Shown here: one piece after another, positions 10,343-33,638 of the stretch
Layout: each line of letters begins with the position of its first letter
How positions within the stretch are numbered: the first letter of the stretch is position 1
The notes under the pieces: model-generated
What the model saw: only the letters and a program-made list of their open reading frames with translations
The model's database searches: none
Told to the model about the DNA's origin: nothing
Program-made: the position numbers and the translations under genes
NCBI GenBank assembly: GCA_017511945.1
Contig: JAFWHR010000007.1
Span: forward strand, 1 to 61,939
DNA length: 61,939 bases
Reading direction: 5' to 3'
Source: Bacilli bacterium
GTDB taxonomy: Bacteria > Bacillota_I > Bacilli_A > RF39 > UBA660

Positions 10343-11107
10343 GTGACAGTTTATGTAGATGGTCTTTTGTTTTTAAACTTTTTCTTTGATTTTATTTTAC
10401 TCGCTGCAACATCTATAGCACTAAAAAAAAACATTAGTATGTTTAGAATTATCTTAGGTGCTTTTATAGGAAGTATATCTATTTTAGTTTTGTTTTTTAA
10501 AGTTAACTCTATAGAACTTTTTATAATTAAAATATATTTAGGATTTTTAATGTGTGTAGTTACATTTGGATTTAAAAATGTCAAATCTTTCTTAAAAATT
10601 CAAGGTACTTTTTACATCATAAGTATTTTACTTGGAGGTTTTCTATACTTTATAAATTTAGAGTTTTCTTATAAACATGATGGATTAATATTTTTTCATA
10701 AAAATGTAAGCCCTAATATAATCTTTTTATGCATAATTTCACCTATTATTTTATACATTTATATAAGGCAGGTTAAAATGTATAAATGTAAGATTTCAAA
10801 AAGTTATAAAGTCAATTTATATATCGGTAAAAGGATAATTAAATTAGATGGTTTTTTAGATACTGGTAATAGTTTAACATTTAAAAATAGACCTGTTATG
10901 ATATGTAATTTAAAGAACAAATTTAAAAAGAAAAAGTACTATATAATGGCTAAAACTGTGAGTGGTAATAGTCTTATAGAGTGCATTAATATTAAAAAGG
11001 TATTAATAGAAGGTCTTGGGGTATATGAGAATGTATATTTGGGCTTTAATAGTAAATTAAAATTTGATGGATTTGACATTTTACTAAATTCAAAAATGGA
11101 GGAATAG
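10343..11107 (+). CDS. spoIIGA: Sigma-E processing peptidase SpoIIGA
   Basis: 254 aa with a GTG start. N-terminus VYVDGLLFLNFFFDFILL, polytopic, then FLDTGN (aspartic protease motif). Directly precedes sigE. Confidence 0.85.
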   Translation: MTVYVDGLLFLNFFFDFILLAATSIALKKNISMFRIILGAFIGSISILVLFFKVNSIELFIIKIYLGFLMCVVTFGFKNVKSFLKIQGTFYIISILLGGFLYFINLEFSYKHDGLIFFHKNVSPNIIFLCIISPIILYIYIRQVKMYKCKISKSYKVNLYIGKRIIKLDGFLDTGNSLTFKNRPVMICNLKNKFKKKKYYIMAKTVSGNSLIECINIKKVLIEGLGVYENVYLGFNSKLKFDGFDILLNSKMEE

Positions 11108-24519: not shown

Positions 24520-24909
24520 ATGAAAAAGGGTTTTACATTGGTTGAACTTCTCGGAATACTCATGATACTTGGAGTTATAACTTTAATTGCTGCACCAGCA
24601 ATAGTATCTACCAATAAGAAGTCTATAGATAACGATTATGTGGAATTTAAAAAGACGATTGAAAATGCAGCTGAAGTATACGTGGAAACTCATTTGGATG
24701 ATATAGATGTTATTAACTTAAAAAATAATGGATCATCTATGGATATAGATGTATCAACTTTGATATCTTCTGGACTTATTAATGGGGGAATGAAAAATCC
24801 TAACGTTAAACAAGATGTTAATGGAAATGAAAAAATAGCAAATCAACAAATATCTGTAACTGCAAGTAAAGAGGGTAATGTAATAAAATATACCTATAGT
24901 GGACCATAA
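24520..24909 (+). CDS. Type IV pilin / pseudopilin-like protein
   Basis: Prepilin leader MKKG|FTLVELL followed by a hydrophobic helix. 129 aa. Confidence 0.8.
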   Translation: MKKGFTLVELLGILMILGVITLIAAPAIVSTNKKSIDNDYVEFKKTIENAAEVYVETHLDDIDVINLKNNGSSMDIDVSTLISSGLINGGMKNPNVKQDVNGNEKIANQQISVTASKEGNVIKYTYSGP

Positions 24910-28335: not shown

Positions 28336-28997
28336 TATTAAATCAAAAAGCATATTTTACTTCACTAAAAGAAATAGAAGAGTTTCAAAATAAAATAGAT
28401 AAATATAAAAATAGTGTCATTGTAATCCCTTCTAATATATATTTAGAAAATTATATTAAAAAAGGTTATAAAGTAGGATGTCAAGATGTATCTGATTATA
28501 AATCAGGACCTCATACTGGTGAAGTGTGTGCGAAGGCTTTAAAAGACTTAGGTGTTAGCTATGTTTTAGTCGGTCATTCTGAACTTAGAGAAAAATACAA
28601 ATTATCTCAAGATGTAATTGTCAGTAAAACTCGTAGATGTTTAGAAGAGGGATTAAATGTGATTTTGTGTATTGGAGAATCTTTAAAGGAAAAAGAACAG
28701 ATGCAAATATTTAAGGTTATAGATGATGAGTTAAAAGGAGTAGATAAAAGCATCATAATTTCATATGAGCCTATATGGTCGATTGGGAGTGATTTAATTC
28801 CTTCTTTTGAAGAGATAATGGATATTATCAGTTATATAAAATCAAAAGGTTTTAAAAAAGTTTTGTATGGTGGTAGCATTAATGAGCGAACTATTAATGA
28901 ATTAAAAGATATGAAGGGGTTAGATGGATTTTTAGTTGGAAGTGCATCTGTAAGTTTTGAAAATGTTATTAAGATGATAGAAGTTTTATCAGAGTGA
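28323..28997 (+). CDS. tpiA: Triosephosphate isomerase (short, divergent)
   Basis: LNQK (for NWK), GPHTGE, VGHSELR and YEPIWSIGS. 224 aa. Confidence 0.7.
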   Translation: MERLVLNQKAYFTSLKEIEEFQNKIDKYKNSVIVIPSNIYLENYIKKGYKVGCQDVSDYKSGPHTGEVCAKALKDLGVSYVLVGHSELREKYKLSQDVIVSKTRRCLEEGLNVILCIGESLKEKEQMQIFKVIDDELKGVDKSIIISYEPIWSIGSDLIPSFEEIMDIISYIKSKGFKKVLYGGSINERTINELKDMKGLDGFLVGSASVSFENVIKMIEVLSE

Positions 28998-29009
28998 AGC
29001 TTCTATTTT

Positions 29010-29016
29010 TTCGACA
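29010..29016 (+). promoter_or_regulatory. Candidate Spo0A box (TTCGACA, the reverse complement of TGTCGAA)
   Basis: Exact 7-mer about 45 nt upstream of the TGTATAAT extended -10 (TATAAT at 29060-29065) preceding spo0A. Confidence 0.4.
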
Positions 29017-29087
29017 AAACTAGATATTTTTTACTCTAGAAAATGTATGATGTATATTGTATAATTTTTATGGTAAGGGAGAGAAAT

Positions 29088-29846
29088 ATGAAAACTAATA
29101 TTTTAATGATTGATGACAATACAAATCTAATTAACATGGTTAAAGAGTATTTTAGTGATAGTGATGTACGTATTATGTTTGAGGCTAAAGATGGTGAAGA
29201 AGGTTTAGAGGTTATTGAAAATCATAAAGATGAAATTGATCTTATAATTCTAGATTTGATAATGCCTGGCAAAGATGGGATGTACGTTTTATCAGAGCTT
29301 AAAAAAAGAGGTATTGATAAAAAGATAATTGTTGCGACAAGTTATAATGCCTCTGAAGTAATTAGAGAAGTGTCAGAGTTTGGTGTAAGTTATTATGTTT
29401 TGAAACCTTTCGATTTAAATGTTTTGGAAAAGAGAATAAAGGAAATTACAAATAAAAAAGAGGAAAATAGTTCAATTGATTTTTATTCAAGTAATTTAAA
29501 TATATCAATAACTAAAATGCTTCATGAGCTTGGTATTCCTTCGCATATTAAAGGGTATCAGTATATAAGGGAAGGAGCTAAAATAATATTTGAAAGGCCT
29601 GAGGTAATAGGAGGCATTACAAAAGAATTATATCCGGAACTTGCTAAAAAGTTTAATACAACCGTTTCTAGAGTTGAGAGGGCTATTAGACATGCTATTG
29701 AGGTTAGTTGGAATAGAGGTAATTTAGATTTTATGGAAGAATTATTTGGGTTTAGTGTAGATATTGATAGAGCTAAACCGACTAATTCTGAATTTATGGT
29801 TACAGTAGCTGATAAACTTAGACTAGATTTTCATAAAGTTAACTAG
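29088..29846 (+). CDS. spo0A: Sporulation master regulator Spo0A
   Basis: Receiver domain (DLIMPGKDG) plus the Spo0A-specific C-terminus [18 protein letters not shown]-type helix and [15 protein letters not shown]. Start at 29088 behind RBS aagggag. Confidence 0.92.
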
Positions 29847-29893
29847 TCTTTTTTTTTAATGTGTGGTAAAATAGTTATAGAAGGTAGGGTAAT

Positions 29894-30247
29894 ATGAAAA
29901 AAGGATTTACTTTAGTTGAACTTTTAGGAAGTATTGTCATTTTAGCTATAATTGCTTTAATTGCTTTTCCTACTGTTTTAAATTTACTTACTTCATCACA
30001 AAATAAAATAGATGATGGTTTAAAGAATTATGTGGAAGAAGCGGCGAGAAGTTATGTAAGTGATCACGTAAATGATTATCCTAAAGATAGTAGTGATCGT
30101 AAAATAGATGTTTTTACTCTTAAAGATGATGGATATATAAGTGAAACTAATTTTGAAAATAATAAATCTATTCAAAGTGGATGTGTAAAAGTTTCGGTGA
30201 AAAACAATAATTATGTATTTTCATTTTCAAAAGAAGAGTGTAATTAA
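29894..30247 (+). CDS. Type IV pilin / pseudopilin-like protein
   Basis: Leader MKKG|FTLVELLGSIVILAIIALIAFP. 117 aa. Confidence 0.8.
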   Translation: MKKGFTLVELLGSIVILAIIALIAFPTVLNLLTSSQNKIDDGLKNYVEEAARSYVSDHVNDYPKDSSDRKIDVFTLKDDGYISETNFENNKSIQSGCVKVSVKNNNYVFSFSKEECN

Positions 30248-30266
30248 AGAAAGAGAAGGTAATGAT

Positions 30267-32558
30267 ATGAATAAAAAAGCATTCACATTAGCAGAAATAC
30301 TTGGAGTGATAGTTATAATAGGGTTATTAGCAGTAATAATAACTCCGCTTGTAGTAAATAGATTAAAAGGAAATAGTGATATAGTATCAACTGCAAGTGA
30401 TGATTTGATATTTGCATCAGCAGACGAATATATAAAGGATAATATAGAGAATTATCCACCAGGAAAAAACTACTGCATAAAGGTTAAAGCATTAATAGAT
30501 TCAGGCTATCTTTCAGAAAAGACTAAAGATATAATTACAGGTAATCCTTTAGATAATTATTATGTATCAGCTAATATATATGGAGTTGGTAACGTAGATT
30601 ACAATCTTTATAATTCAGAATATGAATGTAATAAAGTTAAATCGCTTCCTGTAATTACATTTACAGTATTAAATGGATGGGGAGGTTCGAAAGAAGTAAA
30701 AATTAATTATCCTTCAGTAGAAAATGAAATGTATCCAGAAAAAGGATTTGAATGGAATTATAAAATTAATAATGGAAGTAAAAATGATGTAGGGGATAAT
30801 ACAAATGATTCAAAAAATCCACCTAAGCCGACAATAACATTTACAGAAAATGGTACGCTATACGCAGAAATGAAATATGGAGATAGAATTATAAGTAATA
30901 GTGTTAAAATAGACATGATAGATAAAGATGCACCTAGTGATATAAAAATAGGTTCATTTCCTACGCAAACAAATAGTGATATAACTACTAATTGTAATGA
31001 TTTGAATAATGTGACAATTACTATGAGTGATGTGGGTGGTAGTAAATTAGATAAATATATTATTACGGAAACAAGTGGCAAACCTGATAATAATTCAAAT
31101 TGGATTGATATAAGAGATGCGAGTAATATGAAAGTTAGTAAGGCAACAGTAAAATTTAAAGTAGATTACCCTTCAACTTTAGAAGAAAAAAAATATTATG
31201 TTCATGTCTTGGATACAGCAAATCAATATTCTTCACAATCTTTTAAAGCGTCGATATATCACACATTAACACTTAATTATAATTATTCTGGACGTGCAAA
31301 TGATAATCAAATTGTTAAAAATGGTGAAACGTTTAATTTACCATCCCCAAAGAGAGATGGTTATACATTTCAAGGTTGGTATAAGGATTCTAAATTTACT
31401 GAAAGTAGCAAAGTTAATACAGGCGACCGAGTATGTCTTGGTAACAATTTAACTTTGTATGCTAAATGGAAAGCAAATACATATGTTGTTAGTTTTGTTA
31501 GCAATATTAGTGGAGCAACAGGATCGACAAGTAATGTAACTTGCACATATGATCAAAATTGTACATTGACAAAAAATGGTTTCTCAAAAACAGGATATAC
31601 ATTTCAAGGTTGGGCTACTACAGCAAGTGGTAATAAAGTTTATAATAATTCACAAGTTGTAAAAAATTTAGCTACATCTGGAACTGTAAAGCTATATGGT
31701 AAGTGGACAGCAAATACATATGTCATTAGTTTTGTTGGAAACATAAGTGGAGTAACAGGAACGACAAGTAATGTAACTTGTACGTATGACCAAAACTGTA
31801 CATTGACAAAAAATGGTTTTTCAAAAAGCAATTATGTTTTTGAGGGATGGGCTACTACAGCAAGTGGCAATAAAGTTTATAATAATTCACAAGTTGTAAG
31901 AAATTTAGCTGCATCTGGAACTGTAAAATTATATGCTAAATGGATAGAGGCTTGTTCAAGTGTTAAATATGTTGATGGAACTACCTGCACTAAAAAATGT
32001 GGGGGCGGCACATATAATCAATTAGCTTATTCTACATATAATAATCAGAGATGTTCAGATAAAGATAAAACATCCGGCGGAGCATCTTGTAATAATCAGC
32101 CTTGTTATAAGGTATTAGCAACTGGTGCCCATGTGTGCCCAACAGATAGTAGTCTTGATGGATGGGATAGAGATTGTCACACTGATACACATTTTAATAC
32201 AATGGAGATAAGTAGCGTTAGTATTACAGGATCAAATCTAAAATTTCATATAAAAGTGAGGGCAAACACACAATATAACAATATTTTTAGGGGTACAATA
32301 ACTGGTAAAGTGTGTTTATCGACTGGTTCAAGTTGTACTTATACAGTAAAAAATAATATAGATATGTCTAATTGGTATAATTTGAGTGGAGTTGTTATAA
32401 ATAGTACATTAGAATATGATCTCAGTGATAATAATGTATCAAAAGGAAAATACTATGTGATATTTAAGTCAACTGGTTCTGATGGTGGACCTTATGCAAG
32501 TTTTACCCAAAATCCTTCGAAAAGTGGAAACAAGCAAATTTTTGAAGTACTATATTGA
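30267..32558 (+). CDS. Giant pilin-like protein: prepilin N-terminus, three Listeria-Bacteroides (Flg_new) repeats, a TSP1-like Cys module and a C-terminal domain
   Basis: MNKKA|FTLAEILGVIVIIGLL leader. Repeats ending LTLYAKW, VKLYGKW and VKLYAKW, each with GYTFQGW/YVFEGW. CTKKCGGGTY...CNNQPC. Confidence 0.8.
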   Translation: MNKKAFTLAEILGVIVIIGLLAVIITPLVVNRLKGNSDIVSTASDDLIFASADEYIKDNIENYPPGKNYCIKVKALIDSGYLSEKTKDIITGNPLDNYYVSANIYGVGNVDYNLYNSEYECNKVKSLPVITFTVLNGWGGSKEVKINYPSVENEMYPEKGFEWNYKINNGSKNDVGDNTNDSKNPPKPTITFTENGTLYAEMKYGDRIISNSVKIDMIDKDAPSDIKIGSFPTQTNSDITTNCNDLNNVTITMSDVGGSKLDKYIITETSGKPDNNSNWIDIRDASNMKVSKATVKFKVDYPSTLEEKKYYVHVLDTANQYSSQSFKASIYHTLTLNYNYSGRANDNQIVKNGETFNLPSPKRDGYTFQGWYKDSKFTESSKVNTGDRVCLGNNLTLYAKWKANTYVVSFVSNISGATGSTSNVTCTYDQNCTLTKNGFSKTGYTFQGWATTASGNKVYNNSQVVKNLATSGTVKLYGKWTANTYVISFVGNISGVTGTTSNVTCTYDQNCTLTKNGFSKSNYVFEGWATTASGNKVYNNSQVVRNLAASGTVKLYAKWIEACSSVKYVDGTTCTKKCGGGTYNQLAYSTYNNQRCSDKDKTSGGASCNNQPCYKVLATGAHVCPTDSSLDGWDRDCHTDTHFNTMEISSVSITGSNLKFHIKVRANTQYNNIFRGTITGKVCLSTGSSCTYTVKNNIDMSNWYNLSGVVINSTLEYDLSDNNVSKGKYYVIFKSTGSDGGPYASFTQNPSKSGNKQIFEVLY
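31473..31946 (+). repeat. Two tandem 237-bp (79-codon) near-identical repeats inside the giant pilin gene
   Basis: The unit starting gcaaatacatatgt recurs at 31473 and 31710 with only scattered substitutions. Confidence 0.85.
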
Positions 32559-32588
32559 TGAACAATTAAAAAGATAAATATTTGATTT

Positions 32589-32613
32589 AAAAAGCAGATT
32601 ATTACTGCTTTTT
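32589..32613 (+). terminator. Rho-independent terminator
   Basis: aaaaagcag/ctgcttttt stem, loop attatta. Confidence 0.7.
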
Positions 32614-32678
32614 ATCTTTTCCTTGATTAATTATTTAATGTAATATATAATTAATACAGAATTTTTGTGGTGATATGT

Positions 32679-33638
32679 ATGAATATTGGAAATGTTAAAA
32701 TAAAGGGAAAAGCCTTTTTGTCTCCCATGGCGGGTACTTCAAATTCCGCATACATGAAAATATGTGAGGAAATGGATGTAGGATATGCCGTTACAGAACT
32801 CATTAGTTCTGAGGCTATAACTAGAGGAAACAAAAAAACATTTGATATGCTTAATGGTTATGATAAATTGAATATACCTGTAGCAGTTCAGTTATTTGGC
32901 TCTAATTCTAAAGTGATGGGAGAAGCAGCAAGAATAATAGATGATATGAAACTGTTTGATGTAATCGATATTAACATGGGCTGTCCAGTTACTAAAATTG
33001 CAGTATCATCTTCTTCTGGAAGTGCTTTGCTTAAAGATCCTGAAAAAGTTGGAAATATTGTCTCTTCTGTTGTGAGCAGTGTAAAAGTTCCAGTTACAGT
33101 TAAAATAAGAAGTGGATGGGATCATAAATCTATAAATGCCTGTGAAATCGCTAGAATATGTGAAGAAAATGGCGCAAGTGCAATTACAATACATGGCAGA
33201 ACGAGGTCTGATGGTTATGGCGGCAAAGTAGATTTAGATATTATAAAAAAAGTAAAAGAAAGTGTAAGTATTCCAGTAATTGGAAATGGCGACATTAAAA
33301 ATGGCAAAGATGCTGAGAATATGATGAACTACACCAAATGTGATGCTATTATGGTAGGAAGAGCTGCTTTAGGAAATCCTTGGGTGTTTAAAAATATAAA
33401 TAATTATTTTTCAGGTATAGATGAATATATACCAACGCTTAATGATAGAGTAGATATGATAAAAAGACATCTTGATTATCTACTTGAAATTAAACCAGAG
33501 AGAACAGCCATTTTAGAGATGAGAACAAATGCTTCTTATTATTTGAAAGGAATAAGTGGAACTAAGGACATAAAAGAGAAAATATTTAAATGTAAAACTA
33601 AAAATGAATTTATAAAAGTAATAGAAAGCGTGATATAA
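32679..33638 (+). CDS. dusB: tRNA-dihydrouridine synthase
   Basis: LSPMAGTSNSAY, INMGCPV and TIHGRTR motifs. Confidence 0.88.
   Translation: MNIGNVKIKGKAFLSPMAGTSNSAYMKICEEMDVGYAVTELISSEAITRGNKKTFDMLNGYDKLNIPVAVQLFGSNSKVMGEAARIIDDMKLFDVIDINMGCPVTKIAVSSSSGSALLKDPEKVGNIVSSVVSSVKVPVTVKIRSGWDHKSINACEIARICEENGASAITIHGRTRSDGYGGKVDLDIIKKVKESVSIPVIGNGDIKNGKDAENMMNYTKCDAIMVGRAALGNPWVFKNINNYFSGIDEYIPTLNDRVDMIKRHLDYLLEIKPERTAILEMRTNASYYLKGISGTKDIKEKIFKCKTKNEFIKVIESVI

Follow-up and report, generated by a model that had tools for sequence, protein, structure and literature searches.

Gene, prepilin signal and pilin module

The 61,939-nucleotide (nt) stretch analyzed here (hereinafter the window) is JAFWHR010000007.1, designated C23 among the 28 contigs of a 0.91-Mb, 85% complete genome assembly with 28% GC from a Bacilli bacterium of the RF39 lineage (GCA_017511945.1). 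Its forward strand carries, according to the open reading frame (ORF) listing and the translation, an uninterrupted ORF (30267–32558) coding for a 763-amino-acid (aa) protein with the N-terminus MNKKAFTLAEILGVIVIIGLLAVII, which we consider a candidate modular type IV pilin and which is the subject of this analysis. A ribosome-binding site (GAGAAGG; 30253–30259, + strand) is situated 7 nt 5′ of its ATG at 30267, and a 99%-identical allele in an independent ENA metagenome assembly has an identical start and identical neighbors (in the order LPG_synthase_TM, GT4, TIM, Spo0A, the 117-aa pilin, the modular pilin, Dus, and DHH). The two alleles of the gene are separated by five synonymous and five non-synonymous differences, too few for a reading of selection. 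We rejected a 781-aa ORF starting from ATG 30213: it has no ribosome-binding site, buries the pilin motif 18 residues deeper, and disagrees with the independent call at 30267. Immediately upstream is the gene for the small 117-aa pilin (P0002; 29894–30247, + strand; N_methyl, 29.3 bits; TIGR02532, 26 bits), which is separated from ATG 30267 by a gap of 19 nt and is itself preceded by spo0A, whose product matches both the Response_reg and Spo0A_C domains. An initial annotation of this DNA had correctly recognized the 763-aa ORF, the normal-sized pilin gene before it, and the position of both downstream of spo0A; the frame overlap that it described between the two pilin genes arises only from the in-frame ATG at 30213.

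The protein begins with a short predicted class III leader (MNKKA/FTLAEILGVIVIIGLLAVIITPLVV; leader at 30267–30281, + strand), for which a prepilin peptidase cut is predicted after Ala5. The PilFind rules of Imam et al. ask for a [GAS]-x4-[DE] motif at most 35 residues from the start, with no fewer than 14 uncharged residues behind it (PMC3244431); applied by hand, they all hold for the 763-aa protein, in which 21 uncharged residues follow the mature E5. The −1 residue of the leader is Ala, where Gly is more usual; PilD cleaves at Gly or Ala (PMC3244431), and Ala is also found at this position in the family members P0011, P0110, and L031, with Gly and Ala alternating among the orthologous small pilins of the genus. 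Because of this Ala we grade the predicted signal as near-canonical and not, as the initial annotation had it, canonical; the F1, E5, and uncharged stretch of a class III signal are all present.

The leader is followed by a pilin module (residues 6–127; 30282–30647, + strand) comprising a hydrophobic helix α1 with F1, E5, G14, and P22 (mature numbering), a small β-sheet, and the pair Cys70/Cys121. In alignments (A1–A3) of 29 family members, residues F6, T7, L8, E10, L12, G13, P27, C70, and C121 are invariant and G19 is nearly so; in mature numbering the conserved set reads F1, T2, L3, E5, G14, and P22. A profile of the first 128 residues matched solved pilins with their mature Phe1 aligned to residue 6 (e.g., Geobacter PilA-N, E=3e-6; Streptococcus sanguinis PilE1, 6.6e-5; GspG, 1.6e-4; and also MshA, Myxococcus PilA, and Thermus PilA4/5), these matches extending over α1 only. 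The AlphaFold2 (AF2) model of the module shows a helix at residues 8–58 and strands at 68–115, with a predicted local distance difference test (pLDDT) score of about 50–87. Further, phmmer searches found the same N-terminal module in many small pilins of 120–135 aa. The invariant residues, the cysteine pair, and the matches to solved pilins together support the pilin-like head proposed in the initial annotation.

Probable stalk modules and the C-terminal domain

The mature product is about 83 kDa and the protein contains 18 Cys. As modeled by AF2, it consists of an N-terminal helix and a β-sheet, followed by a chain of β domains. Foldseek searches with the full 763-aa model recovered generic immunoglobulin (Ig)/fibronectin type III (FnIII) tandems and the InlB B-repeat only, and were uninformative on the pilin head and the tail. 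The first modules of the chain are two β-sandwich (Ig/FnIII-like) domains (residues 128–222 and 223–331; 30648–31259, + strand; pLDDT 51–93 in 10-residue blocks), which match the FnIII/Ig tandems in Foldseek and are conserved across the family, the phmmer matches covering residues 1–335. Next come three InlB-type B-repeats (Flg_new; residues 332–404, 405–483, and 484–562; 31260–31952, + strand), matched in three stretches by PF09479 (E=3.9e-28; 97.8 bits against a cut-off of 27) and by TIGR02543 (77 bits); the Listeria-Bacteroides/InlB B-repeat entry is presumably IPR013378. They are modeled with a pLDDT of about 90 and match InlB (7pv9) in Foldseek with a probability of 1.0. Repeats 2 and 3 constitute a 237-bp tandem duplication (Tandem Repeats Finder: period 237, 2.1 copies, 86% matches) and are identical at 65 of 79 residue positions.

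Beyond the B-repeats is a six-Cys module (residues 563–615; 31953–32111, + strand), a degenerate TSP1-like unit. As criteria for TSP1 we took six Cys, a CSxxCGxG core, a Trp/Arg ladder, and a hidden Markov model (HMM) score above threshold (PF00090/PF19028/PF19030). On its own, the module has the core CTKKCGGG, lacks the Trp/Arg ladder, and reaches an E-value of 0.18 with PF19030 (12.5 vs 23.8 bits). A joint profile of this and homologous modules recovered the thrombospondin type 1 repeats of thrombospondin-1 and complement C6 (E=3e-6 to 1e-5); 12 of the 17 aligned modules match TSP1 Pfam families, and the sister modules in related pilins include canonical WSxW...CSxxCGGG...RTR repeats. We read the module as a derived relative of the TSP1 type and not as a demonstrated TSP1 member. 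Entire TSP1 arrays are seen in a set of pilin-headed proteins of 620–1,300 aa with N_methyl scores above threshold (P0278–P0292; e.g., P0282, P0286, and P0281), in which canonical WSxW/RxR repeats are mixed with a derived YKDGTxC...CGGGTYNQLAYS type; such arrays on bacterial pilins seem under-described.

The protein terminates in a 148-aa β-sandwich (residues 616–763, followed by the stop codon; 32112–32558, + strand) with invariant cysteines at 624, 637, 683, and 690. Other pilin-headed proteins (P0009, P0136, P0152, P0248, and P0278/9) also end in this four-Cys domain. An AF2 model built from a six-sequence alignment has a pLDDT of 79.6 and a predicted template modeling (TM) score of 0.81. 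Searches of the domain against Pfam gave no match, and with Foldseek none at E≤0.001, the best being CBM21 (7qf7; E=2.7e-3, TM 0.39–0.45). Identification as a CBM21, C2, or ML domain was considered and rejected, the similarities being weak and none at E≤0.001, and we retain it as an unclassified β-sandwich. As modeled, this domain is a likely candidate for a ligand-binding tip, its ligand perhaps being a carbohydrate or glycan. The initial annotation had already listed the three Flg_new repeats and the Cys-rich module; the middle region of about 200 aa that it placed before them is present and resolves into the two β-sandwich domains, and the C-terminal domain is about 148 aa long where it had estimated about 170.

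Family, the spo0A-linked slot, and the assembly genes

To delineate the family, we searched 1.84 billion representative proteins by phmmer with residues 1–335 as query, obtaining 1,491 matches at E≤1e-3, of which 197 have E≤1e-10 and 15 have E≤1e-30. Lengths of 400–2,700 aa are frequent among these proteins, the pilin-headed members from gut Bacilli being mostly 460–1,300 aa long and the longest match having 2,693 aa. They share the first ~335 residues and vary in their C-terminal modules, which include ChW, ricin lectin, TSP1 arrays, and Cys-rich ends. The family is hosted by reduced-genome gut Bacilli (Candidatus Coprosoma = GTDB CAG-822, order RF39) and, among GTDB species representatives, is found in uncultured gut Bacilli from sheep, chicken, and the rumen, among other hosts. 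The genus of the window was placed by two coincidences of coordinates, of G023:C40 with DVFV01000048.1 (Candidatus Coprosoma intestinipullorum) and of G008:C1 with OZ007022.1. Long pilin-headed ORFs, some of them in tandem, are encoded in at least 15 of 24 genomes of this genus. For instance, the complete genome OZ007022.1 has three tandem modular pilin genes (L040; 1049877–1065031) coding for proteins of 693–714 aa with identical N-termini (MNKKGFTLAEILGVIVVISLLLLLIM), which suggests recent duplication followed by diversification of the heads. In the genome under study, C5:36130–36408 (− strand) preserves a 94-codon stretch that shares 84% identity with the N-terminus of the 763-aa protein, contains four stops, and is followed by unrelated genes; judged by these features, we take it to be a decayed paralogue. 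We rejected a role for it as a silent cassette: it retains the conserved N-terminus only, has four stop codons, and offers nothing further in support of such a role.

The genomic position of the gene is part of a wider pattern. In about 23 of 29 genomes of the genus (loci L051–L079), spo0A is directly followed by an orthologue of the 117-aa pilin, usually with a second pilin of a different type (149–170 aa) and then dus behind it. In our genome the 763-aa modular pilin gene occupies the second slot, and a modular pilin gene directly follows spo0A in another species (G004) and on the more distant contig L037. This last contig and L049, both combining spo0A with this pilin family, are filed under 'uncultured Muribaculaceae' (Bacteroidota) metagenome-assembled genomes and are probably mis-binned.

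An extended −10-like promoter element (TGGTAAAAT; 29864–29872, + strand), a consensus match only, lies in the 47 nt that separate spo0A from the small pilin gene; in many loci of the genus, the corresponding spacer of 42–78 nt contains a T-run as well as a conserved TGnTAtAAT-like element in the equivalent position. spo0A itself ends in a weak hairpin (−7 kcal/mol, z −1.1). On account of this weak hairpin followed by the conserved element, the pilin genes may be transcribed independently of spo0A; we claim no control by Spo0A. The sole terminator-like site within 28900–32800, again a consensus match only, is a hairpin with a T-rich tail 3′ of the 763-aa gene (32588–32614, + strand), and the 117-aa pilin gene probably opens a pilin operon of two genes. 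The window has a third small pilin gene (24520–24909; 129 aa; N_methyl 21.1 bits, just below the cut-off) directly upstream of pgk and apart from any pilus genes.

Profile searches for the A24 peptidase, T2SSE, and T2SSF found no match on the window's contig, in agreement with the initial annotation, which had reported pilB, pilC, and pilD to be absent from the window and pointed to the rest of the genome for the prepilin peptidase and assembly ATPase. That is where they were found. The single A24 prepilin peptidase of the genome (A24_N_bact + Peptidase_A24) is encoded at C9:12892–13695, its gene overlapping that of a PilC-like platform protein (C9:11319–12932; two T2SSF domains, 167 bits) which scores 278/239 bits with GspF/PilC versus 140 with ComGB. 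On a further contig, C24:36210–37493 codes for a 427-aa PilB/GspE-like ATPase (T2SSE, 419 bits) without the N-terminal domains of PilB/GspE, which scores 478/471 bits with GspE/PilB versus 263 with ComGA. Since PilD-, PilC-, and PilB-like genes are thus present on other contigs, their absence from the window does not extend to the genome, and the genome-wide lack of such genes that the initial annotation had named as refuting its reading is not borne out. Divergent from the ATPase gene are those for a 156-aa pilin and for a 403-aa ComGD/ComGE-like pilin (C24:37587–38798, + strand; N-terminus MKMNNKGFLLVESL) with one terminal Flg_new repeat; this 403-aa protein may serve the core machinery as another, smaller modular minor pilin. 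A motif scan found about a dozen small GFTLxE pilin genes across nine contigs of the genome, and the best match in a search of the genome for PilM was a sub-threshold one to PilM_2 (15.5 bits), probably to an FtsA-like protein.

The genome additionally has two Tad-like loci (C16:18051–22229 and C18:10495–15452) with CpaF-like ATPases, TadB/C-like proteins, and TadE-like pseudopilins. Together with the set split between C24 (PilB) and C9 (PilC + PilD), this makes three type IV filament gene sets in a genome of ~0.9–1 Mb. Alongside Spo0A, we also detected SpoIVA (358 bits) and SpoIIGA (117 bits) (C19:10478–11185, − strand; window 10346–10912, + strand), which give this ~1-Mb organism the look of a true endospore former; endospore formation would be notable in an RF39-type lineage with so small a genome.

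A probable modular pilin among known systems and alternatives

We consider it probable that the 763-aa protein is a modular minor pilin through which an adhesin is displayed on a type IV filament, probably at its tip. The conserved pilin features and the machinery in the genome argue for the pilin-anchored adhesin put forward in the initial annotation, which is, at the same time, less unusual than was held there because modular pilins have already been published (PMC8179133).

From these observations we infer a path of cleavage, filament incorporation, and ligand binding that could run as follows. After insertion of the prepilin into the membrane, the A24 peptidase encoded on C9 would cut MNKKA after Ala5 and would probably methylate Phe1. 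Helix α1, with Glu5, Gly14, and Pro22, would then dock the subunit into a filament that the PilB/GspE-like ATPase of C24 and the PilC-like platform of C9 would build from one of the dozen or so small pilins. Owing to the ~640 residues of bulky domains behind its pilin module, the subunit would most likely be placed at the filament tip or be present at low abundance. The two Ig-like domains, the three B-repeats, and the TSP1-like knot would serve as a stalk, and the disulfide-stabilized C-terminal β-sandwich would be the likely binding head, with its ligand possibly a carbohydrate. A model of this sort has been put forward for PilB and PilC of S. sanguinis, and Raynaud et al. (PMC8179133) have extended it to modular pilins in general.

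Several observations weigh against this reading. Of the two domain HMM searches suggested in the initial annotation, the one with Flg_new was strongly positive, and the one with N_methyl (PF07963) gave 17.1 bits for the 763-aa protein, short of the gathering cut-off of 21.2; TIGR02532 likewise gave 14.3 against a cut-off of 16.3. These low scores appear to be due to Ala at −1 and Ala at +4. Precomputed PF07963 matches are found in some other Flg_new-bearing proteins of the same search, including the family member P0030, and in favor of the pilin reading the 763-aa protein gave, among the NCBIfam models, weak N-terminal matches to GspG and ComGC, in addition to TIGR02543. On the adverse side there are also the Ala in place of Gly at −1, the moderate confidence with which the pilin module is modeled, and the location of the assembly genes on other contigs, unlinked to the 763-aa gene. 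PilM/N/O and PilT were not found in the 85%-complete genome, the candidate binding role of the terminal domain draws on its position and on a weak fold similarity to CBM21, and the 18 Cys in a protein of a presumed anaerobe raise the question of a route to disulfide formation.

The minimal nature of the machinery, with its N-terminally short ATPase, platform, and peptidase and with PilM/N/O and PilT not found, also bears on a different outcome of assembly: the protein could enter a short pseudopilus-like or bindosome-like structure, or be held in the wall, comparable to the sugar-binding proteins of Sulfolobus with class III signals. The dispersal of the pilin genes among housekeeping genes fits this too. 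However, the Com-type systems of monoderms make real pili with the same minimal set (PMC3244431, Table 1), and in a genome that is 85% complete the missing parts may be unassembled; we judge such a structure to be rather unlikely.

The low N_methyl score, the Ala at −1, and the lack of assembly genes nearby could alternatively mean that the N-terminus is an uncleaved type II signal anchor, with the Ig/B-repeat stalk extending the head outward from the cell and no filament involved, and many Flg_new proteins are indeed ordinary cell-surface proteins. The invariance of F1, T2, L3, E5, G14, P22, and the Cys pair across proteins that are only 25–60% identical is, however, not expected of a plain anchor. 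Moreover, the N-terminal module is shared with small pilins of 120–135 aa, and the genome keeps a PilD/PilB/PilC set along with about a dozen pilins, such that a plain anchor is distinctly improbable. Least probable by far is a role in a competence (Com) pilus, as a minor pilin whose C-terminal modules would capture DNA in the manner of Thermus ComZ: the weak N-terminal ComGC and GspG matches and the ComGD/ComGE-like 403-aa pilin adjoining the ATPase are in its favor, but the ATPase and platform score much higher with GspE/PilB and GspF/PilC than with ComGA and ComGB, InlB B-repeat, TSP1, and β-sandwich modules have no known role in DNA-binding, and family members bear ricin-lectin and ChW modules typical of glycan and cell-wall binding.

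Understood as a modular pilin, the protein joins a class that is already populated. Raynaud et al. (2021) catalogued over 1,200 modular pilins, distributed among 264 architectures, and defined them by an N-terminal pilin module combined with at least one domain that is not specific to type IV pilus biology (PMC8179133); in the 763-aa protein such domains are the three Flg_new repeats, the TSP1-like module, and the Ig-like and terminal β-sandwich domains. The defining modular type IV minor pilins are PilB and PilC of S. sanguinis, with a vWA and a lectin module, respectively, for which a tip location has been proposed (PMC8179133; PMC9934059). Like these, the present protein comes from a monoderm and combines a class III signal and a small pilin module with grafted modules of predicted adhesive role; unlike them, it has seven added modules in place of one, is encoded outside a pil locus, shows no detectable sequence relationship to them beyond α1, and is known from sequence alone. 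Dataset S1 of Raynaud et al. (2021) lists the architectures IPR012902-IPR013378-IPR013378 (nine proteins) and IPR012902-IPR000884-IPR000884 (one protein), in which the N-methyl pilin motif is joined to the same kinds of graft, namely IPR013378 or TSP1 repeats; the 763-aa protein differs in having both module types together, a conserved Ig-like region of roughly 200 aa, and an unannotated terminal domain. CofB of the type IVb pili of enterotoxigenic Escherichia coli and ComZ of Thermus likewise join a pilin module to extra β-rich domains, and a tip position or ligand contact has been proposed or shown for them (PMC8179133), but these two belong to other classes of pilus, occur in diderms, and have extra domains that are not related to the present ones. 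The B-repeats share their fold and the Flg_new match with InlB of Listeria monocytogenes (7pv9); whereas InlB has a GW-module anchor and a leucine-rich repeat head, in the present protein the B-repeats form part of a pilin and probably serve as spacers in the stalk.

The modular-pilin kind is therefore already known and its B-repeat and TSP1 grafts were catalogued in 2021, and since the design had been predicted and catalogued by then, the protein offers pilus biology little novelty of principle. Specific to the present case are the seven-module combination, the conserved 335-aa 'handle', the unannotated terminal domain, and the RF39-type host. Because its own N_methyl score is sub-threshold, the 763-aa pilin would be missed by motif-based surveys, a sub-cut-off case showing that surveys which depend on motif thresholds under-count modular pilins. 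The C-terminal 200 residues provide an expressible candidate for ligand screening.

RF39-type Bacilli are common, uncultured, and genome-reduced inhabitants of animal and human guts. A bolder proposal, which we regard as unlikely, is that throughout the genus type IV filaments with swappable modular tip pilins are the main organelle of attachment to hosts or partners, with the slot behind spo0A as one site of cassette exchange that possibly couples expression of the pilins to a Spo0A-controlled life cycle. If true, these spore-forming gut Bacilli of ~1–1.5 Mb would possess a shared pilin and Ig-like 'handle' with exchangeable heads (TSP1 arrays, ricin lectins, ChW, and the four-Cys sandwich), and cassette turnover would have left its traces in the C5 remnant and in the tandem triplets of relatives. 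About a dozen pilin genes, a minimal type IV pilus machinery, two Tad-like loci, and the 83-kDa modular pilin have been kept in a genome of ~1 Mb, from which it would seem that adhesins displayed on filaments are important to the lifestyle of this organism.

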